Positions 2,764 through 35,617 of a DNA stretch of 52,958 nt are shown in pieces. The notes under the pieces were generated by a model. The model had not been told where the DNA came from and did no database searches. It saw only the letters and a program-made list of their open reading frames with translations. The position numbers and the translations under genes are program-made. Within the stretch, counting starts at the first letter, position 1, and each line of letters begins with the position of its first letter. The stretch lies in the sequence record SRR20825006_1097, one strand, 5' to 3'.

Positions 2764-2854
2764 GGGTGCCTCATCAATCAATTTAATTAAATTGTACTTT
2801 TATGCCGTAAACGAAGAAATAATATTTACCGGACCAGCCTGTAAAAAATCCATT

Positions 2855-3655
2855 CTACCTTGATTTGTTCGAAACCAACAACTCACCGACATCTTTGCCC
2901 CCTTGAGTGCCGCTAGTGTAGCGCGTGCGAACGGGCTGGAGCTCGAAGTTGGAAAAGATGCTGCGGACCTGTGGCACATCATTGATCGACAGGATAAAGC
3001 GTCCTTTGATGCTGTTGAGCTGATCGGCCATTTGCTCAAAATCGCTTTTTGAAAATATCCCCTTTCCATAGTCGTTCTCACAATCCCAATAGGGCGGATC
3101 GAGATAAAATAGGGTGTCTTTGCGATCATAGCGCTCAATGCACTTGGCGTAGGGCAGGCACTCAATCGTCACGCTTGATAACCGGTCATGCACATCTTCT
3201 AATTGGGCTTCTATTCTCGAAAGATTGAACCTGCTGGTATCAAGTTTGACGCCAAATGTTTGTTTGATTGATTTGCCGCCAAAGGCAGTTTTTTGAAGAT
3301 AGATAAAGCGTGCAGCACGTTCCAAATCGGTGAGGGTTGTTGGATCGGTTGCTTTCAAACGCTCAAATTCCGACCGGCTTGAGAGTTGATATTTCAGTGT
3401 GTCCAGGAATTGCGGGTAGTGACGTTGGAGGATGCGAAACAGGTTGGCGATGTCTTTGGAAATATCATTGATTACTTCGCATTTAACGCGCTCGGTGCGG
3501 CGAAAGAAAATGCCGCCCATGCCGACAAATGGCTCGACATAATTTTGATGTGGGGTGCTTTCAATGATCGGCACAATAGTCTTTGCCAAAAGGCGTTTAC
3601 CGCCTTGATAGGGTGCAACCGGATTGACAGCAACAGATTGGATTTGTTTGTTCAT
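2855..3655 (-). CDS. dam: DNA adenine methyltransferase (Dam/D12 class)
   Basis: PYQGGK, YVEPFVGMGG, YLDPPY motifs; occupies the mom-equivalent position. Alternative GTG start at 3685. Confidence 0.92.
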   Translation of the reverse strand: MNKQIQSVAVNPVAPYQGGKRLLAKTIVPIIESTPHQNYVEPFVGMGGIFFRRTERVKCEVINDISKDIANLFRILQRHYPQFLDTLKYQLSSRSEFERLKATDPTTLTDLERAARFIYLQKTAFGGKSIKQTFGVKLDTSRFNLSRIEAQLEDVHDRLSSVTIECLPYAKCIERYDRKDTLFYLDPPYWDCENDYGKGIFSKSDFEQMADQLNSIKGRFILSINDVPQVRSIFSNFELQPVRTRYTSGTQGGKDVGELLVSNKSR

Positions 3656-3702
3656 TTTTTGTGAATGTCTTTCGGCCAAAGTCACCCTCGCTTGTGCAAG
3701 CA

Positions 3703-3816
3703 GACGGGTGAGGCGTTAAGATTATTGTCGTCTTGCGGGGCTGGATTTAGCGATTTGTCCCCGTAGCCTGCCTTTCAATTGTTCCACCAATTGAAAGGCG
3801 GCCGCCCGTCATTTTT
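3703..3816 (+). ncRNA. Putative structured RNA upstream of / antisense to the dam leader
   Basis: Closing stem GACGGG(3703-08)/CCCGTC(3805-10) enclosing CGGGG/CCCCG and a perfect 12-bp hairpin, followed by ATTTTT. Confidence 0.55.
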
Positions 3817-3869
3817 GAAGTTGAGCAATCTCGCTTTCTTAGGTTGATTTGCAGTTGAGCGGGACCGGA

Positions 3870-4346
3870 TTAACCGATCCTTGCGCCTTCGCATTTGCCT
3901 TGCCGATGAACCTGATTGAGCTTCTCAACAAACGCTTTGAGTTCACCAGGCGAATAGCTGGATGGGTTGGGTATGCCCAATGAGGCGGCGATGAGTTCTG
4001 AGCAAAACCAGCGCCGATTGTCTTGCCGACGCCAGTTGAAAAATTGCGAAAAGATCAAACCGGCAAAGTCATATTTTGCGCCAAGAAACTGTTTGAAGAA
4101 TGGGGCGAGATCGCCCGCATACCATTCAACTTCAACAATGTCCCAATGGCCGGGTTTGAGAATGATATTTTTGACGCGCACGCCGCCATCCCGAAGGCTG
4201 GATGAGGTGCAGCACATAGAGCCATCAGCAAAGTAAAAGCTTGGCTCGGTGATCAACTCAACATGGCTATAAGGCGAACGGGTAACCAGGCGGATCAACT
4301 GATCCACCCATGTGCCTTCAGCCTTATAGAATGCCAGACACGCCAT
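3870..4346 (-). CDS. Phage protein, permuted papain-like (NlpC/P60-type) putative hydrolase
   Basis: His motif YSHVEL precedes Cys motif WFCSE; GAKYDF motif between. Confidence 0.65.
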   Translation of the reverse strand: MACLAFYKAEGTWVDQLIRLVTRSPYSHVELITEPSFYFADGSMCCTSSSLRDGGVRVKNIILKPGHWDIVEVEWYAGDLAPFFKQFLGAKYDFAGLIFSQFFNWRRQDNRRWFCSELIAASLGIPNPSSYSPGELKAFVEKLNQVHRQGKCEGARIG

Positions 4347-4348
4347 GG

Positions 4349-4753
4349 TCAGAACTGTGATGCCAGGGCAATGACCTCAGGTGGGCAGTCAGGCCAATTG
4401 GCGTCGTCGGTGATCACGGCGTTGGCGTCAGCTGCAAGCGTTGCAATATTTGCGCGCATTGCTGCGACCCAATCAATGGCCAGTTCCGCATTGGCCAGCA
4501 CGGCTTTTTCAGCCTCGGTTCGGTTGGCAGTAGTTTTACCGGAAATCACGGCTGAGGCAGCGGCCATATTCATTTGGCTTTCGGCATCGGCAATTGCGTA
4601 GATGCGGCGGCGGCATTCTTTTTTGACCCGATCAAGGCGATGCGCAGCTAGAACTTCATCAATCGCCGTTTGTGGTACACCAGCATTTAGCAATTCTTCG
4701 GGTGTCATGGCCTGATACCCAACACCGTTGTGTTCGAGAAAATCGATTTGCAT
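4349..4753 (-). CDS. Putative tail fibre assembly/chaperone protein
   Basis: Follows fibre gene; VKKECRRRI and C-terminal DDANWP..P pattern. Confidence 0.6.
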   Translation of the reverse strand: MQIDFLEHNGVGYQAMTPEELLNAGVPQTAIDEVLAAHRLDRVKKECRRRIYAIADAESQMNMAAASAVISGKTTANRTEAEKAVLANAELAIDWVAAMRANIATLAADANAVITDDANWPDCPPEVIALASQF

Positions 4754-4777
4754 TTTTCACTCCTTGGAGTTTAGGGC

Positions 4778-5536
4778 TTAAACTGTGGTCAGGTTGGTCA
4801 CCAACCAAGGCAACGTGTTGGATGCGACACCAGCTGGGTTGCCCTGTTGGCCAAAAAGCATGCCATTTGGATTTGTCACGGGGCCTGGATAGGTGTTGCT
4901 ATAGGACAAAAAGCGCATCGTCTGTGAGCTTGCGAAGAACGGCGAGAGTGGATTTGTAGGGATTACAATTTCGCAATCACGGACGAGAACATTCATGTGT
5001 CCCCATTCCTCAATTGTGGCGAACAATGCTGTGTTTGCGCTAACATATGCTTCAAAGCCTGTAATCTCGGGCATTACAATGCGAATATCGAAGAAATAAA
5101 GGGCACCGATATTCCCGGTCGAAATGTTTGTGTTAACGCGATATTGCGTGTCGCCTACCGTCGAAACATAACGTTCAAAGGTAAGTGAAGGCATCGGTCC
5201 ACCTGCATTCCTGAACAGAACGGATCGACCATTTAGATTAAGGCTCTGGAATAGATGGTAATCTCCAGCCAACTTTATGGTAACAAGTCCACCACGCGGT
5301 ACTAGGTCGACAGCGTGCTGGATGTCTTTGAATGGGGATGCAGATGTACCTTCATTCGCGTTGTCACCGTTCTCTTGGTCAACCCAAAAAGTCGCAACAT
5401 AATTTGCTAAGATGCCGTCATAGCGGTTCGTGAGTTCGGTGATCTTCACATTAGCAGCATCAGAAACTTGCTGTGGCAAATCCAACAACAGTCCAGCTTG
5501 GCTGGTCAGATCGGCGATGGCTTGATCGAGGCTCAT
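4778..5536 (-). CDS. Putative tail fibre / receptor-binding protein
   Basis: N-terminal coiled coil, then FWVDQENGDNANEGTSASPFKDIQHAV (beta-helix-associated start motif); position after the tail-collar gene. Confidence 0.65.
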   Translation of the reverse strand: MSLDQAIADLTSQAGLLLDLPQQVSDAANVKITELTNRYDGILANYVATFWVDQENGDNANEGTSASPFKDIQHAVDLVPRGGLVTIKLAGDYHLFQSLNLNGRSVLFRNAGGPMPSLTFERYVSTVGDTQYRVNTNISTGNIGALYFFDIRIVMPEITGFEAYVSANTALFATIEEWGHMNVLVRDCEIVIPTNPLSPFFASSQTMRFLSYSNTYPGPVTNPNGMLFGQQGNPAGVASNTLPWLVTNLTTV

Positions 5537-11444: not shown

Positions 11445-13955
11445 TTAAAACTCCAACCGCTCATCTTCTTCATCTGCCTTTTTCATCATGGCGCGCAGTT
11501 CTGGCATCAAATCGCGCAAGGCATCTTGCAGACTATCAATGTCTTGGGCACTGGCTGATCCAACATGGATCACTGGCGAGAAATTAATCTCAACATTCTT
11601 GCTGCTTGATCCGCTCACTTGCCCGCCAAGGGATCGCTCCATTATCGCTTTTGGTGGCGACACTAACGTCGGATTATTGGCAAGGGATGGCGAGGTGATG
11701 GAGGCTGCTGCCAATGTTGCAGCTGCTGCTTTGCGCATAGCCTTGACCATTGGCGCAGGCTTGATGGATTGGGCAATGGTTTCGGCAAATTTTAGTCGGT
11801 GAATGTCGGAAAGAGGGCCTGTTTTTGCCGGCGATGATGGCAAGTGATCACGCAGCTTTTGAGTGACCTTTTGGATTTCTTGAACAAGCAAATGGGCGCG
11901 TTGGCGCATCCCGGCCGCAATGGTCTCCATCAGGCGGCGGCCGTGATAAGAAAAGTCTGTGCGGGCCAATAAATCATTCACGCGGTTCAGTGTGCCCTGG
12001 GCAATATCTTCTACCCCTTGCGCGGCTTGTCGCACCCGATTGAGCTTTTGCATCGCTGGTGAAACATCCACATTTGTAAGGTGACCCATCGCGCTAGCCA
12101 GGCGGTTGGTGGCGTTGGTTGCTCGTTCAATTGAAGCGGGGTCACGCGCTGCAATATCGATTGCTTGTTCACCTGAAAAAATGCTGGTCAACCCTGTCCA
12201 GGCTTCACCGGTTTTGGCTTTAAGATCATTGATCATGCCGCCAATGTCAGGCAGTTCAGGCAATGGAATTTCTGGCCACTTCCATTCGGGTAGCCACTCA
12301 AGAGAAAAGAACCATTTAATCTTTTTCACAGGCTCGTCAAAAGATGGGATTTTGATGTTGCCGATCAGTGCACCCCAATCAATATTCATTAAATTTTTAA
12401 TGTTTTCCCAATGGTGGGCGATAGAGGCCTTTGCCGCCTCCAGCTGATCGGTTATGGCATCAGAAATCTTTGACCAGTTCCTGATGATCATTGCGTGGGG
12501 CGTCCATTCAAAAATCTGTTTCAGCCAATCCCATGTTGCTTGTGCAGCGCTGGTGATGCCTTGCCAAAGGGCTTCAAAGTAGGGCCGGATTTTGTCCCAA
12601 TTGGCATAGATCAGATAAACACCGCCAGCGATGGCCAAAATGGCCAACATGATTGGGTTTGCCATCAAAGCCGCGCCAAGGGTCGCAAGGCCAGTGGCAA
12701 TTTGCACAATGCCAGCGGCGGTGGCCACAAGGGTTGGGCCAAACACCATGCCACCCAAAATCATGGCCAGATTTTCCCAGCCGCCAACATATTCGCTGGC
12801 CATGCTCAAATAGTTTGAAAGCTCGCTAATGATCTCGATGGCACGGGCCGCGAACTGCCACGCGCTTTCAAGGGTGTTTTGAATGGCGGTGGCAATATTG
12901 GTTGCCCAGGCTTTAAGCGATCCATCGGCCTCCATTTGGCTTATGGTGTCGAGAATGCCGCGTAGCTTATCTTTCATCCAATCAAAAAGGCCGGCTTCCA
13001 TAATCATCAATTGGAACTTCATCCAAAGATCAGCCAGGTTCGACATCATGCCTGTCCATGTTTTGGAAAGGCGTTCCATTGAACCAGCATATTTTTCATT
13101 GAAGATTTTCATCAATGTCATTTGAATGGCGGAGCGGTCGCTTGCTTTGGCCGTTGCCGTCATGGCTTTGCCCGCTGCGTCGGTATAGGCGTAGGTGATC
13201 ATGTCGCCCGATTTTTTGGCGGTGATGCCGAATTCTTTTAAGCGCTCATTCTCGCCGGTCACGGCGTCAGCCATGGCTTCCACTGCCTGCATCAACGGTT
13301 TGCCCATGGCGGCGGATGTGTCGCCTAAAGTGCGCAAAGTGCCATTTGTTGGATCAAGGCCATAATTCTTGAGCTGCACAAACGCTTCGGTCACCTGATC
13401 AAGTTCATAGGGGGTGGTCACGGCAAATTGGGTTACCCAGCCCATGGCTTCTTTTGCTTTTTCAGCCGAACCTGTGGAGCTGATCAAAATGGTTTCATAG
13501 CGTTCAAATTGGGAGGCCGTGTCTGTCAGCCCATTCGCGGCTAAGGCGGCGCTTCCCCAAAGCGTGGCCATCACGCCAGTGGCGACAAGTGCGCCCGTTT
13601 TCACCTTGCCAAAACCATTGCCTAAATTATCGATGCCATGTTTAGCCAGGGACAAGGTTTGGCGATTTAAGGTGCTAACCGCTCGTGTGGCTTTTGCCGC
13701 GCCATTTTGCACAGCGTTGAAGGCGCTGCTTGCGCCGCGTTTAACCAGATCATAGGTGCGGGCAAGTTTTTGGGTGGCGCGCGCAGAGTTGGATGTGGCG
13801 CGGCTTGCTTTAGATTGATCGCCAAGGGACGCTTTTTGCAATTTGGCGTTGGTCTTGTTGAACTTCTCCATCCGCCGGTTAAAGCGCAACAGCTTTTCCA
13901 TGCGCTTGGAGGCGCGGTCTGTAAATTCAGCAACAACACCTAAGCGCATGGTCAT
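11445..13955 (-). CDS. Tail tape measure protein
   Basis: 836 aa Ala-rich helical; FAVTTPYELDQVTEAF tape-measure motif; W-periodic repeats; LPSSPAKTGPLSD. Confidence 0.93.
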   Translation of the reverse strand: MTMRLGVVAEFTDRASKRMEKLLRFNRRMEKFNKTNAKLQKASLGDQSKASRATSNSARATQKLARTYDLVKRGASSAFNAVQNGAAKATRAVSTLNRQTLSLAKHGIDNLGNGFGKVKTGALVATGVMATLWGSAALAANGLTDTASQFERYETILISSTGSAEKAKEAMGWVTQFAVTTPYELDQVTEAFVQLKNYGLDPTNGTLRTLGDTSAAMGKPLMQAVEAMADAVTGENERLKEFGITAKKSGDMITYAYTDAAGKAMTATAKASDRSAIQMTLMKIFNEKYAGSMERLSKTWTGMMSNLADLWMKFQLMIMEAGLFDWMKDKLRGILDTISQMEADGSLKAWATNIATAIQNTLESAWQFAARAIEIISELSNYLSMASEYVGGWENLAMILGGMVFGPTLVATAAGIVQIATGLATLGAALMANPIMLAILAIAGGVYLIYANWDKIRPYFEALWQGITSAAQATWDWLKQIFEWTPHAMIIRNWSKISDAITDQLEAAKASIAHHWENIKNLMNIDWGALIGNIKIPSFDEPVKKIKWFFSLEWLPEWKWPEIPLPELPDIGGMINDLKAKTGEAWTGLTSIFSGEQAIDIAARDPASIERATNATNRLASAMGHLTNVDVSPAMQKLNRVRQAAQGVEDIAQGTLNRVNDLLARTDFSYHGRRLMETIAAGMRQRAHLLVQEIQKVTQKLRDHLPSSPAKTGPLSDIHRLKFAETIAQSIKPAPMVKAMRKAAAATLAAASITSPSLANNPTLVSPPKAIMERSLGGQVSGSSSKNVEINFSPVIHVGSASAQDIDSLQDALRDLMPELRAMMKKADEEDERLEF

Positions 13956-14149
13956 TTTTCTCGCTCCGCTGCTTTGCGTTCCGCTTCAAGGGCGGCTTCA
14001 TCCATTTGGATTTGCTGATCTAAAAGTGTGAGAAATTCTTGTTCGGAGAGCCCGTCCAGGTAATCGGCGCCCCAGCCGCGATTGACCATAAAGATGTGCG
14101 CTTCAAGAGAAGAAAGGGCTAAGCCTTCTTCTCCGCTTGTCGCTTTCCC
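13952..14149 (-). CDS. Tail assembly chaperone, -1 frameshift extension (lambda gpGT equivalent)
   Basis: G GGA AAG at 14149-14143; -1 frame reads ATSGEEGLALSSLEAHIFMVNRGWGADYLDGLSEQEF...ERKAAEREK* and stops at ATGA overlapping the tape-measure start. Confidence 0.85.
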   Translation of the reverse strand, partial: GKATSGEEGLALSSLEAHIFMVNRGWGADYLDGLSEQEFLTLLDQQIQMDEAALEAERKAAEREK

Positions 14150-14472
14150 GCTTCGTCCTCATCTTCGTCCCAATCATCCTCATCATCACCAAACACTTCA
14201 GACAAAAGTTCATTGGCGTCATTGGTGGGGATATAGGCGCGGAAATCAGCGGTTGTGATTTTTTCGCCATCAAAGGTGGCGATCTTGCAAAGGTAAATCA
14301 CCTGGGCGTCAAACAATTTGTTCTTGGCCATGCTCAGGGCGCGTGTCCAATCGCCATGTTTGCGGAATTTAGGGAATGTCACTTCTACGCCTGTTTCGGG
14401 CAGGGTGATGGTTTGATTGCCTTCATTGCTGGCTTTATGTGCTTTGAGCTTTTCGATCACTTTGCTGGACAT
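14119..14472 (-). CDS. Tail assembly chaperone (gpG equivalent)
   Basis: Between tube and tape measure; ATG 14472 with AAGGA upstream; contains GGGAAAG near the 3' end. Confidence 0.85.
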   Translation of the reverse strand: MSSKVIEKLKAHKASNEGNQTITLPETGVEVTFPKFRKHGDWTRALSMAKNKLFDAQVIYLCKIATFDGEKITTADFRAYIPTNDANELLSEVFGDDEDDWDEDEDEAGKRQAEKKA

Positions 14473-14561
14473 GTATTGTTCCTTCCAAAAAAACATCCCC
14501 GCCGCGAACCAGCCGCGACGGGGATTTGGGCGGGGGAGGTTATGCCCTAACGATGCTTTAT

Positions 14562-15077
14562 CTATTGCCAGAATGCGCCGGAAGAGTTCCGTACCTTGTT
14601 GGCAAAAACATCGACTTCCAAAAGTGTTTCTTCACGCGAGTGCAGGCGTTGCACCAAACGGGAACATGTATATTCGGCGCTGATCTCGGCATCATCGCCG
14701 CTTTTGGTTTCGTTCATCTCGACGCCATGGAAACGCACGTCAACAATGGTGATCAGCGTGTGTGAGTTTTCTTCATCGTGACCGGCGGGGCCAGACACAT
14801 CCACAAATTGATGGAGCTGCATTTTATGCAGGTGTGTAGGGTCATAGACCTTTTCCATCACTTCAGGCTCTAGAAATTGAAAACTCGCAGAACCTTCAAG
14901 TGCATTGAGCTTGCGCCCCGGTGTTTTGAGAACGGCAATTTGCCCAAGCGTTTCATGCTCAATGGTTTCCCACTCAATCTTTGGGATTTTGAATGAGGTG
15001 GCGATCCCGATCAAAGAATTATCTTCAAGATAGAGTTCTGCCTGTTTGGATTTGCCATAGCGGATCAAGTCAGCCAT
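14562..15077 (-). CDS. Major tail tube protein
   Basis: Follows sheath; P2 FII-like size and C-terminal LLEVDVFAN. Confidence 0.88.
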   Translation of the reverse strand: MADLIRYGKSKQAELYLEDNSLIGIATSFKIPKIEWETIEHETLGQIAVLKTPGRKLNALEGSASFQFLEPEVMEKVYDPTHLHKMQLHQFVDVSGPAGHDEENSHTLITIVDVRFHGVEMNETKSGDDAEISAEYTCSRLVQRLHSREETLLEVDVFANKVRNSSGAFWQ

Positions 15078-15123
15078 TTTTATTCCTTTCATTGCGCCTT
15101 AACTGGCGCGGTTGCAGCCGAAC

Positions 15124-20857: not shown

Positions 20858-21670
20858 ATGATGGACGGGTTTAATTTTTGGATTGTTACGCTCAGTCCAT
20901 ATATCGGAGTGGGTCTTTTTCTTGATCTAGTTGTTGTAGCAAAACATCGTCATGCAATTTCGTGGTATGTTTTTGGCTATTCCGAAGCGGATACAACCAG
21001 ACTTGAACTCACACTCATGCGTGCATTGATTTCAATCTTTGTTAAATCAGGCTGGATCGAATTCTACAGAGTTTTAATTTATTCAATATTTTTTTCTGCG
21101 ATTTGTCTTGTACTGCTGGCAGTTAATTTCTTGGGCATCGGTCGTTTGCTGGCAGATAGAGAAATTCCATCGTTTAGCCTTGAAGATTTCTTTTCATCAC
21201 AATTCCTCATTGTATTACTGTTTATCTCAACGGTGACCGGCTTTGTCACTTCTTGGTTCGATTTTTTAAGTCTATGGCTTTCAAAATTTCTATTCGTAAA
21301 TAAATCGCCGCAATTTCCAAAGTCGCTTATGTTCCTTTTGATTGACGTACTTTGCAGTGTGGGCGTTGGCGCACTGCTGGTGTGGATAGTGACGAACCCT
21401 TCAGAGGGGGTGCGGTCTGTCCTTGAATTCATTTCCATGAAGCCTCAACTCGCAGTCTATTTGGCATATATAGCGACATTGTCTGCTCTGTTTTTTAGCA
21501 TCATTCAGTTGGTAATATTTGTAGTCGGGGCAATTTGTCGGATTTTGATCGGCATAACCAAACTAAACCAAGTTGTTTCTATTCACTCGCATGTTCATGA
21601 TTTTCCATTCACATATTTACTTCTAGTGCTGGGTGTTTTTTATGCTGTTAGCAAGCTTATCATCAGCTAG
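20858..21670 (+). CDS. Moron: polytopic membrane protein
   Basis: 270 aa with about 6-7 hydrophobic segments, AT-rich, opposite to the head genes. Confidence 0.8.
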   Translation: MMDGFNFWIVTLSPYIGVGLFLDLVVVAKHRHAISWYVFGYSEADTTRLELTLMRALISIFVKSGWIEFYRVLIYSIFFSAICLVLLAVNFLGIGRLLADREIPSFSLEDFFSSQFLIVLLFISTVTGFVTSWFDFLSLWLSKFLFVNKSPQFPKSLMFLLIDVLCSVGVGALLVWIVTNPSEGVRSVLEFISMKPQLAVYLAYIATLSALFFSIIQLVIFVVGAICRILIGITKLNQVVSIHSHVHDFPFTYLLLVLGVFYAVSKLIIS

Positions 21671-22178
21671 AGCGAAAGAAATTAACTAGTGTCATTTCGA
21701 TAATGGTTTCATCCTCCCGCCCCACTCCAATATAAGGCCGCGCCGGAATTGAAACCGATTTTACAAAGAACGGCCGGTTGGCAGATTTAGGACGTGGTAT
21801 GGCCAACGCTTTCGCACGAACAGGCTTGATGGTTGCTCCATATTGATGCACCAAAACCTTTGGATGGTTGAGATTAGTGCCTACCTCAGCTTTTTGGCTA
21901 TCGGCTTTAAAGTGGATCGAGCGGAACAACTCACCAGATTTGCGCAAAATGCCGGTCGGTGAACGGCCAAGGCTTAAGGTGAGGGCAGATAAGGGGGCCC
22001 ACTTCTCACCATCAGGCGATATTTGATCCAAAAAACGTTGGCTGGTTCGGTTGAATAGCGTCTGTCCAATAATGGTGTGAATAGCACGCCGATCTATAAG
22101 GCGTGATTGAATAGCTTCAAGTTCGAGGCTGAGCTGATCTACATCATATTTGACGTTTAGGGTCGGCAATATCGGCAT
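21663..22178 (-). CDS. Virion morphogenesis protein (Mu gpG)
   Basis: RFLDQISPDGEKWAPLS, ILRKSGELFRSI, VGTN, HQYGA, IPARPYIG; ATG at 22178. Confidence 0.9.
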   Translation of the reverse strand: MPILPTLNVKYDVDQLSLELEAIQSRLIDRRAIHTIIGQTLFNRTSQRFLDQISPDGEKWAPLSALTLSLGRSPTGILRKSGELFRSIHFKADSQKAEVGTNLNHPKVLVHQYGATIKPVRAKALAIPRPKSANRPFFVKSVSIPARPYIGVGREDETIIEMTLVNFFRSS

Positions 22179-22207
22179 TTGTATTCGTCCTTTGAAAGCG
22201 CTATATT
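22179..22207 (+). promoter_or_regulatory. Sigma70-type promoter pointing antisense toward the gpF 3' end
   Basis: TTGTAT (22179-84) - 17 bp - TATATT (22202-07). Confidence 0.6.
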
Positions 22208-22210
22208 GTG

Positions 22211-22326
22211 GGCGTGATGCCAGCTTGCTTGATGTATGGTGCTGCGGCGTTGGCGGCCCCACTAAAGATCAAGCCCGGTGGTTGTGGACACGCCTTAAGC
22301 AACCCATCACTCTTTCTCTTCTCGTT
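22211..22326 (+). ncRNA. Putative structured small RNA between gpF-PBECR2 and gpG
   Basis: Own promoter; nested stems GGCGTG/CACGCC, GCTTGAT/ATCAAGC, TGGTGCTGC/GCGGCCCCA; pyrimidine tract from 22311. Confidence 0.5.
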
Positions 22327-23590
22327 TATAAAGCAGAGCACCTTTGCGATATTTGGTGAGATAGCCAAAGTCTGGACGTTTGCCATTCTTGCGCTTGGGA
22401 TCAAATATGGTTTGCTGATGCCAACCTGCACTCGTCCAGGAAAACGAAGCAAATCCAGCTGCCGCTTCAAAATACCTCAAGTAGCGCCGCACCAAATAGG
22501 TTTGTTTTTTGGGGTTGGTGGCAAAATCGATCCATATTTCATCGGGATCAATCAAGGTGTCGGCCAAAAATTCAATGGCTTGCTCGCGACCCGATTTCTT
22601 GATTTTCAATTCGCCCGTATGCGCCCGAAACAATTCATCACTTACCGGGATCACATGACCTGCCTTGTCTCGAAACAGCCTTGGCACATTGATCGCCGCG
22701 CCAAATCTCGACAAAAACTTGGTTAGATAGTTGGCCTCATCATCACCTGACTGAAGCAATCTGGCTGTGCTTGGTGCGGTAGCTGGTGCCGGAAGCTGGC
22801 TTATGTGTTGAGTGATATTTGATGGTTTTAAGGGAACGCGCAATTCTTTTGGGATGATGCCATCGGCCCAGGTGCGCCCCGGCGCATAAGCCCAGCCCAT
22901 ATCGATGCCGACCGGATAATCCGTCCAATCATCTGTGGCCGGATCGCGTTGTTTCTCAAACCTAATTTTTGGCGCGTTGTCTGGCTCAGTTTTGCCCATT
23001 GCCTTTAAATCGAATTCTGAAACAGGCATCACGCCACACCCACATTTCCAGCCATTGGGTGGATAATAAGTGAGCCACCACTCCTCATCAGCGCGTAAAA
23101 CCATCCCATCCCAATGTAAATGCTGTTCGCGCCGATTGGCTGGAATGCGTTCAAGGCCATGAACATATTTCCAATAGGGAAATGCGGCTTTAACGGCGGG
23201 GTCTGTCATTTGCTTATACCGGCCAGCGGCGTAAACTGATTTCAGGTTTGTTTCATAAATGGTGCGGGCGCGCCAATCGCGGCCACCATTATAATCCCAT
23301 CCATGGCGCGCAACAATTTCATCAAAATGGTCAAGAAAGCCCATTTGATATTGCCCGTCTTTATCGGTCCACCCTTTAAAGGGCATGTTGTCGATTGATT
23401 TTTCAATGGCTGAATGAAAATCAGCCAACAAGGCATCGCGCTTGGCACCGGCCACCACAAATGCGCGATCATGGGCATGATGAAGGAGATCACTCCATTT
23501 GTTGGTGGGCAGATTGATTTTTTGGCGATGGAAATCCAACGCTTCAGAAAAAGGACCGAACCCGTCAGCAAAGGCAGTCTGGATTTTTAG
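22307..23590 (-). CDS. Mu gpF minor head protein with C-terminal PBECR2-like nuclease domain; no good start codon, probably reached by frameshift from the portal
   Basis: PFSEALDFHRQK, HDRAFVVAGA, YPPNGWKCGC (MuF); LADTLIDPDEIW..RRY..RKGALLYKR (PBECR2-like). First conventional start (TTG 23539) falls inside the N-terminal motif. Confidence 0.85.
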   Translation of the reverse strand, partial: LKIQTAFADGFGPFSEALDFHRQKINLPTNKWSDLLHHAHDRAFVVAGAKRDALLADFHSAIEKSIDNMPFKGWTDKDGQYQMGFLDHFDEIVARHGWDYNGGRDWRARTIYETNLKSVYAAGRYKQMTDPAVKAAFPYWKYVHGLERIPANRREQHLHWDGMVLRADEEWWLTYYPPNGWKCGCGVMPVSEFDLKAMGKTEPDNAPKIRFEKQRDPATDDWTDYPVGIDMGWAYAPGRTWADGIIPKELRVPLKPSNITQHISQLPAPATAPSTARLLQSGDDEANYLTKFLSRFGAAINVPRLFRDKAGHVIPVSDELFRAHTGELKIKKSGREQAIEFLADTLIDPDEIWIDFATNPKKQTYLVRRYLRYFEAAAGFASFSWTSAGWHQQTIFDPKRKNGKRPDFGYLTKYRKGALLYKREEKE

Positions 23591-25173
23591 TTTTTTTTTG
23601 AGCCACTGATGCCGGTGAGATCATAAATGTCACCGCGACCAGCTAGATCGCTCAGCGCAATCGCGTCTGCCAGATTGTTGCCCAAAGCATCAATCTTAAG
23701 GTCAGCTTGCGCCGCCAATAAGGCCTTTGAAGCTTCAGCAAATGAGTTGGTGTTATGCAGTCTGGATTTAAGGGTAGAAAGCCATTGCTCTACTTCAGGC
23801 GCATTTAGGTCGCTGAGCTGGGCAACAATATGCGCAATTGGATCATCATCACTGGCAAAGGCTGGTGTGTCCGTCGCAATCTTTTTGGATTGTGCCGGGA
23901 TCATCTCCACACCCAAAAGATCACCAAGCCAATCACTCACATTTTTCGGTTCAAAACCTTGGCCGCGCAAATCGCCAAGCGTTTTGATCGCGGCTTGATG
24001 GCTTTCTTGTCTTTTCTTTTTTTGCTCTTCTTCTTTGTCTTGGTTGAGGGGGCGAGGACGCACCAAAGTTGGTGGTGTCGCGTTTGGCCAATTGGCCTCG
24101 CAAATCCATTTGATCAACGTATCGTTTAGGGTTGCGCAAAGTTGGTCGGCATCATCGTCCACTAGGCTTTCTGTTTCTTCAGCATGGGTTTCTGAAGCAG
24201 CGCGTGCGCCTTGGCCCTTCACACTTGTAGAAAGCGTGCTGCCCAAAACAACTTCGGCTGTTTGCTCGTCCCAATAGCGGCACCATTCTTCATGGCCCGC
24301 ATTGCCCGCGCGTTGCGCTTCAATGAAATCAACTTCAGTGCCAATGGGCGCAACCAGGGCACCATTTTGCACTAGACGCCGCAACAGCCCCAATAAGCGA
24401 TCCTGTTCATCATTGGATGTGCCAGCTGGATAACGGCCGAATGGTGTGGGCGATGCAAACTTTTCCAAATGCACCAACCAAAAACTTGCGCCCTGGCGTT
24501 TAAACAAAACGTGCCAATACAGCACTGAACCTAAGCCTAGACCATATGGATTGTTGCCTTCAGCTTCAAAGCGATGGACGATGAATTTGCGTTCAGGCAA
24601 TTCAATGCCCTTAATGCCGCTTTCGCGCGTCAAAAGGCGTGGCTTCCAATCCCGGTCAAATTTGAAGCGTGCCGGGTCATGTGATTTGATGAAGTGTGGG
24701 GCGATCCAACCGCTCTTATTGCGATGCCAAACAATCTCAGAAACCGCATAACCCTTCAAAATAGCTTTGAGCAGTGACTTGCAGATTTGATCGAAGGGCA
24801 GCTCATTTAAAATGTCATTGATATGATCAGCCACATCAATATCTATCTGCTCTTCACTTGCTGGAAGTAAATCCCATTCGCGCTTGGTGAGTTTGCCAAT
24901 TCGTTTGTTAAAGGCGGCGCGTGCGCGGCCATCCTGTAAAATCTCATCATAGAGCTTTAGGCCAAGGTGACGCGCTTTGGACTTAAGGGTTGGGTCTTGT
25001 GGCTCCAAAACGTCGGAATAAAAAGGAACGGTCACATCATTTTTCGCCGTTGCAAACAGTTCGCCGCCCTTGCGCGGCAAATAGGTGCGTGGGCGGTTGG
25101 CTTTGGTATTGCTGGCAAAGTCGATATGTTGTGTTTGAGCTTTTTTGGTGCGGCGTCTTGATTTACGGCTCAT
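23587..25173 (-). CDS. Portal protein (DUF935, Mu gp29)
   Basis: KGYAVSEIVW, NPYGLGL, EKFASP, VLGSTLST, C-terminal LAGRGD. Confidence 0.93.
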   Translation of the reverse strand: MSRKSRRRTKKAQTQHIDFASNTKANRPRTYLPRKGGELFATAKNDVTVPFYSDVLEPQDPTLKSKARHLGLKLYDEILQDGRARAAFNKRIGKLTKREWDLLPASEEQIDIDVADHINDILNELPFDQICKSLLKAILKGYAVSEIVWHRNKSGWIAPHFIKSHDPARFKFDRDWKPRLLTRESGIKGIELPERKFIVHRFEAEGNNPYGLGLGSVLYWHVLFKRQGASFWLVHLEKFASPTPFGRYPAGTSNDEQDRLLGLLRRLVQNGALVAPIGTEVDFIEAQRAGNAGHEEWCRYWDEQTAEVVLGSTLSTSVKGQGARAASETHAEETESLVDDDADQLCATLNDTLIKWICEANWPNATPPTLVRPRPLNQDKEEEQKKKRQESHQAAIKTLGDLRGQGFEPKNVSDWLGDLLGVEMIPAQSKKIATDTPAFASDDDPIAHIVAQLSDLNAPEVEQWLSTLKSRLHNTNSFAEASKALLAAQADLKIDALGNNLADAIALSDLAGRGDIYDLTGISGSKKN

Positions 25174-26797
25174 TGCCTGATGTCCCGAATAAATTATGGC
25201 TCAAGCCAGAAACAGATTTGATGGTATTTTCATTGATGGTGGTGCCCGCATAATGAAGCGTCTGGCTCCAAAGCATTTCCAAACAGTCTGGCCCATCATC
25301 ATGATCGGCGTTAGGGAACTGTTCCAACTGATCCAACAGGACACGTTGCGAGGTGTGAAACCGGATTTGCCCACATGCAGTAGGTGGCTGAAGCCGCTCG
25401 ATGCGCAACAATTTGTCGGCAATTGGCACAACAGGAATGCAAGGCATGGCCAAATGCGCTTTTGCTGCTTCTTTCATCAGAGTTGTGCGCAAAAATTCTT
25501 GAAACTGTACCGCTTCAACAAACCATAGTTGGCAATTGTAAAGCCGCTGCATGGCAATGGCGTCAGCAATAATCACATCGGGCAAGCGGCGGCGAATAGA
25601 CGCTTCAACAACATCTAATATGTCGTCGTCGCGGTCATAGCCGCCAATCAAAATGGCGGATGGATCACGATTTTTATTGTTCTTGCCAAGGGAAGGATCA
25701 ATTGCGCCAAAGTACAGCCAATTGCGCTTTTTCATCACCCAATAATGTTTGGTTTGGAATTTATTGTCATCAGAGACGGGCTTGTTTTGATATTCGCTTT
25801 CAAAGGCATTGTGATCGCCCGCGCGCTCTTTCATCAAAAACAAAAGGGTGTGATTGGCGGGCCAATTGAGCGCTGCGCCTTGATCCATTGCGGATCTGTT
25901 GCGCTGATAAAACACATCCGCTTCAGGCTCACCTTCATTAAGATAAATCTCTTCCCATTGATCCCAAAGGTCCATGCGGTCCGGCCAATTGATCAGGGCG
26001 CGGAACTCAACAGTTTTCCATTTAGGCTTTTTGGAAAAGCGCACGATCACCGCATCAAAGTGCAAAACGGTACCGGCATATAAAACGTCCATAGACCCAT
26101 CAGGTGGGCCAAGCTTTAAAACGGCTTTTGCGATCCAGTTTTCCAACTTCTGTCGCTGCTTCGGGCTGGCGACATTTTCATCATTCTCAATGTCATCCAA
26201 AATGATCAGGTCAGGGCGATAGGGGCCATGCCGCCGACCACGGATTTTCTTGCCCGTACCAAATCCTTCAACCCGCACATTGTTTTTGGTGACAATATCC
26301 CCTTCACGCCAAAGCCGCCCTTGGCCTGCAATGTCGGGAAAGTCATATCGAAGCCGGGGATTGGCTTCCAGCTCTGCTTTAAGAGCTTCAAGCATGATGG
26401 AGGCTTGTTCAAAGGCATCCATGATGAGGCAAATATAATGCTTTAATCCGCACACAATGCACCAAAGCGGAAAGATCAAACTGAGGTGAGTGGATTTGGC
26501 CGAACTGCGCGGCGCGATCACCAACCGGTATTGCCCATTCTTGTCCTGCACAATTTGCGGCAAATTCTGATAAAGATGGTTGTGCAGTTCGCTTGGGTCC
26601 ATGGTGAGGTAATGCGGGAAATATGTTTCCGCAAAAAAGCGATAGCCCGTTGCCTGGTCTTTAACATTTTGAAGGCGTTCTTTGCGCAAATTCGGGTCAG
26701 CGGGAAAGGCGTCCACTTCCAACTCAATTTGCTGGCGAAACATGGCCGCCAGTTCATCAATTGATTTTTTAAACTCGCTGGGTTTGAGCGGCTTCAT
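25163..26797 (-). CDS. terL: Terminase large subunit
   Basis: APRSSAKST (Walker A), IILDDIE (Walker B), AIDPSLG, HDDGPD nuclease motifs. Confidence 0.95.
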   Translation of the reverse strand: MKPLKPSEFKKSIDELAAMFRQQIELEVDAFPADPNLRKERLQNVKDQATGYRFFAETYFPHYLTMDPSELHNHLYQNLPQIVQDKNGQYRLVIAPRSSAKSTHLSLIFPLWCIVCGLKHYICLIMDAFEQASIMLEALKAELEANPRLRYDFPDIAGQGRLWREGDIVTKNNVRVEGFGTGKKIRGRRHGPYRPDLIILDDIENDENVASPKQRQKLENWIAKAVLKLGPPDGSMDVLYAGTVLHFDAVIVRFSKKPKWKTVEFRALINWPDRMDLWDQWEEIYLNEGEPEADVFYQRNRSAMDQGAALNWPANHTLLFLMKERAGDHNAFESEYQNKPVSDDNKFQTKHYWVMKKRNWLYFGAIDPSLGKNNKNRDPSAILIGGYDRDDDILDVVEASIRRRLPDVIIADAIAMQRLYNCQLWFVEAVQFQEFLRTTLMKEAAKAHLAMPCIPVVPIADKLLRIERLQPPTACGQIRFHTSQRVLLDQLEQFPNADHDDGPDCLEMLWSQTLHYAGTTINENTIKSVSGLSHNLFGTSGNEP

Positions 26798-31892: not shown

Positions 31893-32206
31893 TATGCCAC
31901 CTCATGCTTTAAATCGTCAGAAACCCGCAATTGCTCGGCATAAATCCAACGGTGTGAAAGCTGGTTGGCTTCAAGCCAAACGGCCAAGCGAACGCGCGCT
32001 TCTTCACGATTGTCTTGCAGATAAACGCCAGGCACAAAAAACTGGTTTGTTGCAGGGTCATGTCCGGCATAGCCAGCAACCCGCGTTTTAATGTCGATGA
32101 GTGTGCCGCGTTGCTCAAAGATGATGGTGTGTGCGGGCAGTTGATCAACCTCTTCACAAAAGCCGATTTCGCCCGTGCGATAACAATATGCAAAAGCCAT
32201 GATCAC
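31892..32206 (-). CDS. Hypothetical early protein
   Basis: AYCYRTGEIGF...VPGV; overlaps both neighbours. Confidence 0.7.
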   Translation of the reverse strand: MIMAFAYCYRTGEIGFCEEVDQLPAHTIIFEQRGTLIDIKTRVAGYAGHDPATNQFFVPGVYLQDNREEARVRLAVWLEANQLSHRWIYAEQLRVSDDLKHEVA

Positions 32207-32970
32207 ACCTCATTAGGAACGCGGATGGTCTTTGAGGTACGGCGATCATCAATAATGGGCTGGCCCGCCATATCGCTTAGCGAGACACCGCCTTCTTCAG
32301 GCGGATTGCGCAAGCCAAATTTTTCAACCCGCGTGATCGCTTCAATCAGTTCGCGGTTGAAGCCTTGGGTGACCTTATGGACAAATTCCAACAAATTATC
32401 GGCAACCGGTACTTCGCATAGGCTTGAAAACATCAATCGCACATCATCAAGGCTTGCTTGCTCAAACTTCACGCGCTGCGACACGCGTGATGAGACTTGC
32501 GGGAAGCGCTTTAGATTGTCATTGATCCGACCCATGCCCACCAAAATGGTTGGAATTTCTAACATGTCCGAAAGATCGCGGATGGTTTCCAAAATGGCTG
32601 ACTTTGAAGAGATGTGATCCGCCTCATCAAACACCAAGCCAAAGGTGCGTTTTTCATTCAGCGCCAGCATATGGCGGTCGGTAAGCTCTTCTAATGCTTT
32701 GGCATATCGTTTTTGAAAAGCATGGGGTACCGGCACTTGCAGCGCTTCAAGCAGTTCGCTCATCATCCAAGATGGCGTCCATTCCTTTTTAGCGCGCAAA
32801 TAAACACAGTCATTTTGGGCCACCCAATTGCGCAAGGTTGTGGTTTTGCCCAGGCCAGGCAGCCCGTCAATCACAATCAGGCACGCTTCAGCTGCCCCAC
32901 GTTCTTCAACAGCGGTTAGCGCTTTTGCAAAGCGTTGCACATTTGAGGTTTTGACAAATCGGTTTTTCAT
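32203..32970 (-). CDS. MuB-like AAA+ transposition ATPase
   Basis: GLPGLGKT, LVFDEAD, IRDLSD, ILVGM; follows the transposase. Confidence 0.93.
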   Translation of the reverse strand: MKNRFVKTSNVQRFAKALTAVEERGAAEACLIVIDGLPGLGKTTTLRNWVAQNDCVYLRAKKEWTPSWMMSELLEALQVPVPHAFQKRYAKALEELTDRHMLALNEKRTFGLVFDEADHISSKSAILETIRDLSDMLEIPTILVGMGRINDNLKRFPQVSSRVSQRVKFEQASLDDVRLMFSSLCEVPVADNLLEFVHKVTQGFNRELIEAITRVEKFGLRNPPEEGGVSLSDMAGQPIIDDRRTSKTIRVPNEV

Positions 32971-33032
32971 AAGTAGCCTTTCATGGCGCACGGAGAAGGT
33001 GGTAGCTTTCCGTGTTGCGTTTTCTATTTGTG

Positions 33033-35156
33033 TCAGGCAGCGGCGCGCACGATTTCTCTTATTCGGTTCACGTCAATGCCTGACATTTCCAAAAGTTCGA
33101 GCTTCGCCTGAGACAACAGGCAGTTACGCAATACTTCAATTTGGCTACTGGCCAGACCATTGGGGTGCTCGAGTGCCCAAATGGCCAAATCTTCATCAGA
33201 CGCAAAGCGAAGCGGGCGCACATTGTCAGCGCGTAAACCTTCTTTGCGGTCGATATTCTCGGATGATTGTTCAATGGTGATGGACGCGTTCGCCGATGGC
33301 GTTAGCGGTTCCATTGGTTGAATGTTTGAGGCTTCGATAAACGGCATTGGATTGCGTTCCGCCTCGATCTCATCATATTTCATATCAAGGCGACGCTTGC
33401 GTGCCTTTGCCCGCTTTTCATCAGCGACTTTGGCATAGCTCTCATTCACATAGTCTTGTGTGTGGCCGTCGCGCTCAGCAATGCAAATCAGCTTGCCTGG
33501 ACGTTCTTGACCATCGATCTCTTCGATCTCACGTATCCACAATTTTGAACCATCATGGATGTCAAAACCGGCGATCACTTTCTTGTTGTGATAAGTATCT
33601 AAATCCAATGAGAAATATTCACTATTGATAAAGCGCACGATGCAGCGGCTAACGGTGCGCACCACATAGGAGCGGAATAAATCATCACCTTCATTGCTAA
33701 CCAAAGTTACTGGCTGAAACCCTTGGTCCACATGTCGTGCCCAAGCCTCATTTGGCGAACATCTTAGCTTGCGGTGAATGCGGGCATTATATTCATCAAT
33801 GGCCCGTTTGCAGTCGGCCATAAACTCATCCCAACTCTTCAAAAGCTTGCTTTCACCAAATTCTTTGAGGTCTTTTCGGGTGCGTTTATGCACAAAATTG
33901 CTGGCCTCTTTATCCATTTCACGGCCGAGATAAGTGGCATATTCGCGGGCTAAAGGGTTCCAAACGGTGCCGTTAAAGCGCTCAATTACGCCCCGTGCTT
34001 GGGAGTTGCGGGGCAATGAATGGTGAGAGGTTATGCCCAATCGTTCCAAAACGCCGGTCATTTGGTCTTTTAAGCGTTTGTTTTTATAGCCAGGGCCACG
34101 GTCGGTATAGAAAATGGCGGGAATGCCATGCGTTTCGATGGAGTTGCGTAAGGCGTCAATCACCCCATCAGCATTTTCAACCAGGCCAATAGAAAACCCA
34201 ACGCATTTGCGGGTGGCCACATCAACAACAGATGTGATTTCAGGCTTGAAGGGTGAGCCGGTAATTGGGTGAGCAACTTCCGCATCAAATGTCTTGCCAT
34301 CGGCGGTGTAGATGGTGGTGGGCAACATTCCATCAATTGAGCGAGATACGTAAGCCATCCGCGCTTTAAGGGTGAGCGGACGTTCGCGGCCTTTATGTTT
34401 GGAAATGTCATCCATTTGGCGCAGCAACCGCACCACTTGGGCATAGGTGGGGACGAAATCAGAACCCTTGTTTTTCAATTCGCGCTGAAACTCACGCAAC
34501 GCTTCTGAAATGCAAGGTTTTTGCGGGCGCGCATAATGATGCAGAAACCCACCAAACCAATCTGGAAAAGATTGCTTCTTTTTGGTTTTGAGTGGTGCAA
34601 GCGCGGCCACGCCAAAATCATCACGCTGATTGTACCAGCGATAAATGCTGCTTCTGCTTAGTTTGGCGGATTTGTTGGTGCGGTCATTGGCGGTGATGGC
34701 TGTTTGCTCATCAATGCCAAACTCAGCAGGCATGATAAGAAAGCACTTAATCGCCTGAAAGCGAGATAATTCCTCATGCAATTGATAGGCGTCAATGGCG
34801 CTGAGAATAGCGGCGCGGGCATCCATAACTTGCCGTTGGCGGGCGGACAGTTCGGTCGTCACCAAAGCTGCCCGCCGCCTAGCCTCGCGCTCACGAGAAA
34901 CTTGTTGGTCTTGTTTAATGATCTGCTTGTTGTGCTCTGCCAGCGCAACGTCTTGCAGCATCTCAGGCAAAAGCGAAATATGATATTCTAGGCCACCGCC
35001 GCGCACTTTGCGCCTGCGACAAAGATCACCATGTGCTGCCCATTCTTCGCGCTTGGCAAAATCTTGTATCCGGCGTTTGCTGCTTGGGAAATGTTTGAAT
35101 CCTGTGCGCTTCACCAAATCGGCAATGTCTTGTGCAGAAAACCAGTTTTGCATCAT
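33033..35156 (-). CDS. MuA-like DDE transposase
   Basis: N-terminal Mu HTH (WFSAQDIA..GGGLEYH), DDE triad YTADG / YTDRGPGY / GVIERFN. Confidence 0.95.
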   Translation of the reverse strand: MMQNWFSAQDIADLVKRTGFKHFPSSKRRIQDFAKREEWAAHGDLCRRRKVRGGGLEYHISLLPEMLQDVALAEHNKQIIKQDQQVSREREARRRAALVTTELSARQRQVMDARAAILSAIDAYQLHEELSRFQAIKCFLIMPAEFGIDEQTAITANDRTNKSAKLSRSSIYRWYNQRDDFGVAALAPLKTKKKQSFPDWFGGFLHHYARPQKPCISEALREFQRELKNKGSDFVPTYAQVVRLLRQMDDISKHKGRERPLTLKARMAYVSRSIDGMLPTTIYTADGKTFDAEVAHPITGSPFKPEITSVVDVATRKCVGFSIGLVENADGVIDALRNSIETHGIPAIFYTDRGPGYKNKRLKDQMTGVLERLGITSHHSLPRNSQARGVIERFNGTVWNPLAREYATYLGREMDKEASNFVHKRTRKDLKEFGESKLLKSWDEFMADCKRAIDEYNARIHRKLRCSPNEAWARHVDQGFQPVTLVSNEGDDLFRSYVVRTVSRCIVRFINSEYFSLDLDTYHNKKVIAGFDIHDGSKLWIREIEEIDGQERPGKLICIAERDGHTQDYVNESYAKVADEKRAKARKRRLDMKYDEIEAERNPMPFIEASNIQPMEPLTPSANASITIEQSSENIDRKEGLRADNVRPLRFASDEDLAIWALEHPNGLASSQIEVLRNCLLSQAKLELLEMSGIDVNRIREIVRAAA

Positions 35157-35617
35157 TTGCCTCCCCATTTGGCGCTTAAGGCGCGGCGTTCCATTTCCAG
35201 CTGGCTGGCGGCTTGATCAAGCTGCCAAAGGCGCAACACATCCGCATATTTTGCAGGCACCACCACGCATCCGGTGAAGCCGCACACAAAACCCAAAAGC
35301 TCCATGCATTTGGTTACTTCCAAAAGCGCGATAAAGCGCTCCAACGTGATCTTGTGGTCGGTGCGCGCGGGGCTGGCGTAAGAGTTGAGCATGTTGGTGG
35401 TGATCTTTTGATCGAGATAGTCTGACATGGCCAAAGCAACGGCATCGCGATTAAGGCCATGCTGTTCCTGGGCATGGGTCATGGCAGCGGCGAGGGCGCG
35501 GGCAATTTTCACATCCAATGTGCCGCCCTTGGTCACCTGCTCATCAAATTGATGGGCAATCGGTTCCGGTGTTAAATCCCGAAATAAATCCAACGTGTTT
35601 TTGTCTCGCCGCACCAT
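35153..35617 (-). CDS. Phage early protein (putative DNA-binding)
   Basis: RDAVALAMSDYL...MLNSYASPARTDHKI; ATGA overlap with the transposase start. Confidence 0.75.
   Translation of the reverse strand: MVRRDKNTLDLFRDLTPEPIAHQFDEQVTKGGTLDVKIARALAAAMTHAQEQHGLNRDAVALAMSDYLDQKITTNMLNSYASPARTDHKITLERFIALLEVTKCMELLGFVCGFTGCVVVPAKYADVLRLWQLDQAASQLEMERRALSAKWGGK

Follow-up and report, generated by a model that had tools for sequence, protein, structure and literature searches.

The hybrid formed by RNA and DNA within bacterial RNA polymerase (RNAP) is 9-10 bp long, and in vivo the enzyme slips efficiently on runs of nine A or T; a nine-base run of this kind in Thermus dnaX yields about 50% of each of its products, and slippage in Shigella spa13 adds a C-terminal extension to 25-30% of the product (Atkins 2016, PMC5009743). 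The simplest architectures of PBECR domains are fusions to MuF and portal (Iyer 2017, PMC5512222), and toxins fused to the C-termini of MuF proteins have been proposed to be delivered at infection (PMC6316719). Here we analysed the junction between a portal gene and a MuF-PBECR2 reading frame in SRR20825006_1097, a stretch of 52,958 nt referred to in full as the window, in which the genes of interest lie on the minus strand. The portal gene ends in a run of nine A's (A9), and the MuF frame continues from it in the -1 register. On comparative grounds, we consider it highly probable that programmed recoding at this run, whether transcriptional or ribosomal, yields a 955-aa portal-MuF-nuclease fusion.

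The natural portal-MuF-PBECR and portal-MuF-ADP-ribosyltransferase 'polyvalent proteins' have the same domain order and belong to the same families as the fusion proposed here (Iyer 2017). They are, however, single open reading frames (ORFs), whereas the fusion at the window's junction would need recoding, with portal alone as the default product; the term 'frameshift' has 0 occurrences in Iyer 2017 (PMC5512222). As regards the proposed means of fusion, the insertion sequence (IS) transposase OrfAB and Shigella spa13/mxiE are similar in that consecutive ORFs are joined through an A run or by RNAP slippage at a run of nine (Atkins 2016). The product in those cases is a transposase or a secretion regulator, whereas here it would be a virion component.

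The portal-MuF junction of the window

The portal gene (23587..25173, minus strand; 528 aa, zero frame) matched Portal_Mu (PF06074) with 319.2 bits against a cut-off of 23.9 (E 4.5e-95) as well as PHROG 113, and the top Foldseek matches of its AlphaFold2 model were the portals of JBD30 and Mu (E 3e-19 and 1.9e-15, respectively). Its minus-strand end reads AGT GGC TCA AAA AAA AAC TAA (GSKKN*), with the nine A's at 23599-23591 and the TAA stop at 23587..23589, one base past the run. In the portal frame the run (23591..23599) is read as TC[A AAA AAA AA]C, and contains both A_AAA_AAA and A_AAA_AAC, making it the candidate slippage or frameshift site. Read in the -1 frame, the same letters are CTC AAA AAA AAA CTA AAA ATC..., that is, LKKKLKIQTAFADGFGPFSEALDFHRQK. 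The MuF-PBECR2 frame so entered (22307..23620, minus strand; 437 codons) has no start of its own: it is shut by a TGA (23623-23621) eleven codons ahead of the CTA, and its first ATG, GTG or TTG, which is also the sole canonical start codon in the frame, is TTG 23539 (23537..23539), the Leu codon of PFSEALDF. No Shine-Dalgarno-like string was present in the bases ggtcctttttctgaagcg ahead of this codon, and the TTG is unlikely to be the true start of MuF.

The -1 ORF lies directly after the portal and matched Phage_Mu_F (PF04233; about 23272-23027, minus strand) with 44.8 bits (cut-off 29.6) and PHROG 220, 'minor head protein and DNA pilot', with an E value of 1.6e-77. Its C-terminal part (about 22720-22325, minus strand) matched the full profile (1-120) of PBECR2 (PF18810), a predicted RNase domain, with 99 bits (cut-off 27.1). 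A -1 shift within the run would join 525 to 430 residues, giving 955 aa. Since the window contains no other A or T run of at least 8, this A9 is more than a chance occurrence. Across 1.48 Mb of related loci the sense strand carried 178 runs of A7, 46 of A8, 60 of A9 and 9 of A10, together with 3 of T9.

We found the region as contigs in four public sequencing runs. One, identical to the window, is probably its source; a second study contributed two RNA-library runs and a third study one DNA run. Contigs of the latter three runs, which differ from the window by 8, 101 and 127 bases over the compared parts and therefore represent related strains, cross the A run without an inserted or deleted letter. 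Because contigs of all four cross it without a gap, A9 is not an assembly error; this evidence concerns the consensus A9, is blind to a minority of A10 or A8, and the RNA-library origin of two sets is no proof of transcription. The initial annotation had read the same portal end, the A9 with its A_AAA_AAC heptamer, the TGA-closed -1 frame lacking a start until a TTG with no Shine-Dalgarno sequence, and a fusion of about 955 aa, all of which we confirmed, and its call for read support of A9 is answered at the consensus level.

Conservation of the A run and of the -1 register

With the protein of the -1 frame as query, 1434 homologs were identified among 7785 candidates, and we compared the DNA of 229 related loci, taken from collections of genomes and of viral contigs, and of four phage records. 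A tblastn-based table of these comprised 169 unique complete loci; phages RR1-B (L230) and RcWaterboi (L233) lie outside the table and were read by hand. An A run bridged the portal stop and the open MuF frame at 40 of the 169 loci, and a -1 shift was needed in all 40. The run was A9 in 37, A10 in two (L081 and L128) and A8 in one (RcapMu). The zero-frame stop began 0-13 bases past the run in 39 of the 40 loci and 36 bases past it in L211. The first A of the run was the third base of a codon in 31 loci, the first base in 7 and the second in 2, and the sequence to the left of the run varied as well (GGCTC, CGACGT, TCAGTC). As to the limits of the table, it lists eight in-frame loci bearing A9 as run-less (L161, L162, L164, L167, L170, L217, L219 and L220), runs being missed when portal and MuF share one tblastn match, and it calls L158 (A7) in-frame with a run by chance.

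Two run-bearing rows were scored as +1 (L007 and L009); both are extra copies in one Pannonibacter assembly and look like homopolymer errors. This assembly, of Pannonibacter sp. SL95, holds four copies of the junction on four contigs (L004, L005, L007 and L009), which display A9, A10, A9 with the preceding C missing, and A7. In the A10 copy (L005), portal and MuF share one frame that stays open from locus position 2360 to 5336. These variants are either real variation among transposed copies or long-read homopolymer errors.

At the 91 run-less loci with separate genes, the MuF frame relative to portal was +1 in 43, -1 in 32 and 0 in 16, and a start codon was listed for 89. In those checked by hand, the MuF start often overlapped the portal stop as ATGA, with a purine-rich stretch ahead of it. 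Homologs with an independent MuF start, one of the findings that the initial annotation had said would refute recoding, do exist, but their loci lack the A run. Portal tails rich in Arg and Lys (RRKKPRAR, RKRPKAR, RRRRRRR, AKKKRQK) were seen in the run-less relatives L172, L176, L178, L180 and L185, where the stop overlaps the MuF ATG as ATGA, and such basic tails may have been the raw material from which the A run arose.

Mapping frames by tblastn against a natural 922-aa fusion (P0125) placed the runs at two positions. Site 1, at about residue 411-413 of P0125, was used by roughly 25 loci, including the cultured phages RR1-B and RcWaterboi, the metagenomic EBPR siphovirus 4, and RcapMu (A8). 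Site 2, at about residue 516-519, is the position of the window's run. The AlphaFold2 model of the window's portal, built on a 25-sequence alignment with a mean predicted local distance difference test (pLDDT) score of 72 and moderate confidence for the C-terminal module, has a core extending to about residue 420, helices at 445-473, 478-491 and 496-520, and disordered segments at 427-442 and in the tail at 523-528 (pLDDT below 50). As modelled, sites 1 and 2 are thus the two linkers that flank a three-helix module (residues 445-520; 23614..23841, minus strand). In the first linker, the window has TCC AAA AAG (SKK; 23881..23889, minus strand) followed by ..PAFASDDD, where many relatives have the site-1 A9 followed by ..AFADDG, and the TCC AAA AAG is possibly a decayed run. 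In virion portal chains (8rka_A, 9khx_M, 9knu_A), 405 of 526 residues are modelled for JBD30 and 369-383 of 512 for Mu; since the modelled chains are shorter than the sequences, the part equivalent to the three-helix module is missing from the resolved virion structures. The motif (A)FA(D/E) recurs after each site, and is also found near the N-terminus of stand-alone MuF proteins; with regard to the idea of a protease site, it may simply be a feature of MuF.

The arrangement of the window was found at nine loci of the genome collection, in seven named assemblies, from Pseudovibrio (two), Roseibium, Pannonibacter, Labrenzia, Maritalea, Cohaesibacter and an alphaproteobacterial metagenome-assembled genome. 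In each, the portal ends ...GGC TCA AAA AAA AA(C/G), followed by 0-2 codons and a stop (L013 has AGC in place of GGC), and MuF runs on in the -1 frame as ..LKKK.. The CTC and the nine A's were identical in all nine, while the identity of their MuF proteins to that of the window was only 42-62%. Across 15 unique site-2 loci, CTCAAAAAAAAA was the sole invariant block. In a FastTree phylogeny of 157 portal cores (local supports only), the site-2 form was a single clade in which 16 of 16 rows bear the run (local support 99), with the window adjoining Maritalea porphyrae. The main site-1 clade contained 25 shifted rows and 8 in-frame rows, of which 7 retain the A9 and 1 lacks it. The tree classes, which count runs of A8 or more, place L133 and L207 in the shifted site-1 class, which is probably an error: L207 has many A runs, with portal and MuF as separate genes, and L133 has a junction without a run. 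A further case, an IMG/VR contig of 35% G+C and about 28% identity (L128:2954-2963), has an A10 at the portal end and a start-less MuF in the -1 frame, which suggests an independent origin of the same device. The initial annotation had proposed examining related junctions for a conserved slippery heptamer and -1 register, and the run and the register were conserved at all 40 run-bearing loci, the window's own clade included.

We likewise asked where MuF could begin. No ATG, GTG or TTG was present in the MuF frame up to 60 bases beyond the match start at 22 of the 40 run-bearing loci, and in most of the other 18 the first start codon lay downstream of the run. The closest MuF homologs (50-97% identity) have ragged N-termini that begin at differing points inside or after PFxEAxxFxRQK, as if gene callers had found no start. 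More distant homologs have their own Met 10-25 residues ahead of the motif, and still others carry a 60-100-residue N-terminal extension matching the C-terminal part of the window's portal ORF. The statement in the initial annotation that MuF proteins typically start with a PFxEAxxF-like motif therefore needs correction, as stand-alone MuF proteins start about 10-25 residues ahead of it. In L013, a TAG stands directly ahead of CTC-A9 in the -1 frame, and in L015 and L128 the -1 frame opens within the run itself, a T and the first two A's forming a TAA. The frame change at these loci must therefore occur within the run. For the 17-codon block PFxEAxxFxRQKxxLP(T/S), which includes the window's TTG, pairwise differences among 15 unique loci numbered 427, 211 and 1098 at -1-frame codon positions 1, 2 and 3, respectively. 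Because the differences are biased toward third positions, this comparison indicates that the stretch ahead of any start codon is under purifying selection as a -1-frame protein.

Nine loci carry the A9 in frame (L161, L162, L164, L167, L170, L200, L217, L219 and L220); here portal and MuF are fused, with the A9 at site 1. In L161, L162, L200 and L217 a stop closes the -1 frame no more than six codons from where the run begins, and a slip there would therefore give portal alone, which is the polarity of dnaX. Natural fusions, which the initial annotation had named among its checks, are common in databases as uninterrupted Portal_Mu-MuF-PBECR2 proteins about 875-1008 aa long; 79 long homologs were listed, about three quarters of them with both Portal_Mu and Phage_Mu_F. 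Since such in-frame fusions exist (see also Iyer 2017), a fused protein is viable. In the natural fusions P0158, P0161, P0165, P0167, P0168, P0175, P0180 and P0187, ADP-ribosyltransferase domains (PF01129, PF03496) take the place of PBECR2, and P0158 (1700 aa) also has a terminase domain (PF17289).

Polymerase slippage weighed against other explanations

Taken together, sequence comparison demonstrates a conserved, run-dependent -1 link between portal and MuF; the fusion product, the enzyme that slips, the product ratio and the nuclease activity are inferred. Standard decoding would yield the 528-aa portal, ending at the stop one base past the run. In a fraction of expression events, the frame would move to -1 within the A9, and the polypeptide would run on into MuF and the C-terminal PBECR2. 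MuF would have no independent initiation site and would thus be made solely as part of the fusion. We give about an even chance to programmed recoding in which slippage by RNAP is the main route: the polymerase would slip on the nine template T's and add one A to the mRNA, which would then be translated normally, and -1 slippage of tRNA-Lys by the ribosome on the same run may add to the shift. Several features speak for the polymerase. The run is held at nine, although a heptamer requires only seven, all three codon phases are used, and the junctions share neither predicted RNA pairs nor any invariant block besides CTC-A9. The length of the run is close to that of the RNA-DNA hybrid (at least 9, by the criterion given in Atkins 2016), and is kept regardless of the codon phase and of the residues encoded. 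With respect to the initial annotation, which had left ribosomal frameshifting and transcriptional slippage as alternatives, the comparative tests support its recoding interpretation and favour the polymerase.

The strongest alternative is that the same fusion arises by -1 programmed ribosomal frameshifting, in which tRNA-Lys in the P and A sites slips back on A_AAA_AAA or A_AAA_AAC while the mRNA stays A9. We regard this as possible without being probable. The portal frame of the window offers both TC[A AAA AAA] and AA[A AAA AAC], a valid X_XXY_YYZ heptamer (A_AAA_AAA) is available in every phase, and the runs of many relatives end in G, giving the A_AAA_AAG of dnaX. The direction is always -1, and the zero-frame stop, which would help the shift, begins 0-13 bases past the run in 39 of 40 loci. 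What the heptamer leaves unexplained is the retention of nine A's at 37 of 40 loci and in all three phases. We also looked for the stimulators of -1 frameshifting, namely a stem-loop, pseudoknot or Shine-Dalgarno-like element. RNAalifold identified 0 conserved pairs among 15 unique site-2 junctions (-30 to +100), a test of nested pairing shared across the alignment, and no upstream column was invariant beyond CTC-A9 in these junctions, indicating that an upstream Shine-Dalgarno-like element is not conserved. Stimulator-free sites exist, so the ribosomal route stays compatible with this result: stimulator-free -1 shifts of low efficiency are known in phage structural genes (Atkins 2016), and the dnaX 10-mer alone gave 14% in vitro (bioRxiv 10.1101/2025.10.02.679949).

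Several observations weigh against recoding by polymerase slippage as set out above. A purely ribosomal mechanism fits all of the comparative data too, given that the run holds perfect -1 heptamers in all phases, many of them ending in G. The run of RcapMu is only A8, which is short for polymerase slippage, and the consensus A9 of the contigs from four sequencing runs cannot display a minority A10 transcript. The nine in-frame A9 relatives give the fusion by standard decoding; were the site to behave alike in them, their ratio of products would be quite unlike that of the window. Lastly, the 40 loci are not independent, as several rows of the portal tree are near-copies; the tree suggests few origins, namely the site-2 clade, one or two site-1 clades, and L128.

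Far less probable than either form of recoding is that MuF is a separate protein, made by re-initiation past the portal stop or from a weak start (TTG 23539 or ATC 23584), with the A run encoding nothing more than a Lys-rich tail. Run-less relatives do couple MuF to the portal stop through the ATGA overlap, their portal tails are basic even without a run (RRKKPRAR, AKKKRQK), and an L011-type subclade has a -1-frame ATG six codons ahead of the run. Nevertheless, the site-2 clade has no conserved start codon near the stop, and initiation at TTG 23539 or its counterparts would cut off the constrained PFxEAxxFxRQK block. The opening of the frame only at or inside the run in L013, L015 and L128 likewise argues against a separate start, and a Lys-rich tail would not keep AAA over AAG throughout in genomes of up to 63% G+C.

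We consider it more unlikely still that the run is a DNA-level contingency tract, toggled by replication slippage between A9 (no MuF) and A10 (constitutive fusion). Homopolymers are mutable, and the Pannonibacter sp. SL95 copies, with A9, A10, A7 and a missing C, include an A10 copy that is uninterrupted. In contrast to phase-variable tracts, however, the length of the run is near-invariant, both across the loci and in the four related assemblies; the contig names of SL95 hint, at a guess, at a long-read assembly whose variants may be homopolymer errors; and L081 has A10 yet still requires a -1 shift. We find it scarcely credible that the run stems from faulty sequencing or assembly, or from a mutation that recently inactivated a decaying prophage, error-prone though homopolymers are, as four assemblies from three studies agree on A9, the arrangement recurs at 40 unique loci and in the cultured phages RR1-B and RcWaterboi, and the downstream frame is intact and constrained.

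Prophage setting, proposed role and known systems

The minus strand of the window carries the head module of a Mu-like transposable prophage. Matches to Pfam identified a MuA-type transposase (33033-35168; Mu-transpos_C, rve and HTH_Tnp_Mu_1) and a MuB-type ATPase (32203-32991; AAA_22/TniB) together with a Mu-type head module, all on the minus strand, and DUF3164, lysis amidase and DUF1804 genes belong to the same prophage and strand. A 544-aa ORF (25163-26797, minus strand) occupies the position of the large terminase; it had no Pfam match, and its putative role comes from its place. A gpG-like Phage_tail_S protein is encoded at 21663-22262 (minus strand), and the tape measure gene (11445-13955, minus strand) lies further downstream, as does a baseplate hub gene. 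Two small ORFs (176 and 125 aa) at 14119-15092 on the minus strand, upstream of the tape measure gene, occupy the usual place of the tail-chaperone G/GT frameshift pair. A nucleotide search of a phage collection with the 2.9-kb region returned one weak match of 109 bases.

In portals the C-terminus faces the capsid interior, and the Mu portal is shortened by proteolysis during maturation. With recoding at the A9, a few of the twelve portal subunits would bear cargo on their C-termini, and a predicted RNase effector would be placed so as to be the first to exit along with the DNA. PBECR domains fused to MuF and portal are predicted to be injected RNases; Mu's own copy is inactive, and orthologs may be active (Iyer 2017, PMC5512222). 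We tentatively propose, with somewhat less than even confidence, that the A9 is a portable 'ratio dial' which a large group of Mu-like phages has in either linker and with either polarity: polymerase slippage would set how many of the twelve portal subunits carry the MuF-nuclease or, in relatives, another effector, and the cargo would be covalently loaded into the capsid at the exit channel, from where the prohead protease might release it. With the run out of frame, portal alone would be made by default and a slip would give the fusion; with the run in frame, the fusion would be made by default and a slip would give a portal ending within a few codons.

If this is so, MuF and its fused effector are made only as an extension of the portal, which would explain how the cargo reaches the interior of the capsid, in small and constant numbers, at the vertex used for DNA exit. 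The 'ratio dial' would then be the first known case of recoding in a portal gene, and an instance of effector packaging at the level of decoding. It would also add a widespread and strictly conserved example to the few recoding events known from phage structural genes, possibly by RNAP slippage, which is rare in phages. The two positions and the in-frame variants offer a natural series in which to follow the evolution of product ratios. On the practical side, MuF starts would be mis-annotated, the closest database homologs of the window's MuF have ragged N-termini, and site-1 portals look 'too short'.

The nearest earlier hint of this recoding concerns Rhodobacter phage RcapMu (NC_016165, L232). 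The GenBank record describes its portal as 'shorter than related mu-like phages; possible +1 frameshift would allow readthrough', and its MuF as one that 'lacks a good ribosome-binding site' (annotated notes at locus positions 759, 819-2195 and 2291-3772). These notes concern the same portal-MuF junction, at site 1. They differ from our account in that they say +1 while the frames need -1, and they name neither a conserved signal nor a mechanism. The RcapMu junction is GGCTAC-A8-GCCTGA, and that of its relative RcWaterboi is GGCTC-A9-GCCTGA. The RcapMu record also contains a separate 'potential -1 frameshift' note in a small ORF upstream of the portal, RcapMu35. In all 4 deposited phage records examined (RR1-B, EBPR siphovirus 4, RcapMu and RcWaterboi), the annotated MuF start lies past the run.

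Full-text literature searches found no description of portal-MuF recoding; the RcapMu paper and the supplementary cluster tables of Antonov 2013 were beyond their reach and may bear on priority. The term 'portal' had 0 occurrences in the 300,000 of 449,034 characters of Atkins 2016 (PMC5009743) covered, in the main text of Antonov 2013, whose supplementary tables of frameshift gene clusters may list this cluster, and in bioRxiv 10.1101/2025.10.02.679949. While recoding at A runs is well known, the joining of a portal to a packaged effector at two linkers and with both polarities thus appears to be undescribed.

Among the known systems, dnaX bears the closest likeness in its signal. The -1 shift at A_AAA_AAG in E. 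coli and the slippage in Thermus thermophilus both depend on an A/Lys homopolymer and deliver two products in a set ratio, and the nine-base run of Thermus has close stops in the other frames (Atkins 2016). The polarity of dnaX is that of the in-frame relatives L161, L162, L200 and L217. The systems differ in that the shifted product at the window's junction would be long and would join two phage structural genes, whereas in dnaX a replicase subunit is truncated; in addition, the stimulators of E. coli dnaX, an SD-like element and a hairpin, are not conserved at portal-MuF sites. The -1 frameshift of the tail chaperone genes G/GT (Xu, Hendrix and Duda 2004, as cited in later papers) is similar in serving phage morphogenesis, in pairing a minor extended product with a major short one, and in being often stimulator-free. 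In contrast, G/GT involves tail genes and varied heptamers, while here the genes are those of the head, portal and MuF, the run is a strict A9, and the downstream gene has no independent existence. Finally, in SPP1 a MuF-family protein, gp7, enters the procapsid in a few copies by way of the portal, gp6 (PMC6316719), as would the MuF described here. The link in SPP1 is non-covalent and the genes are separate, whereas the A9 would replace that binding with a covalent link, and the copy number of the cargo would be fixed by the rate of slippage, that is, at the level of decoding.

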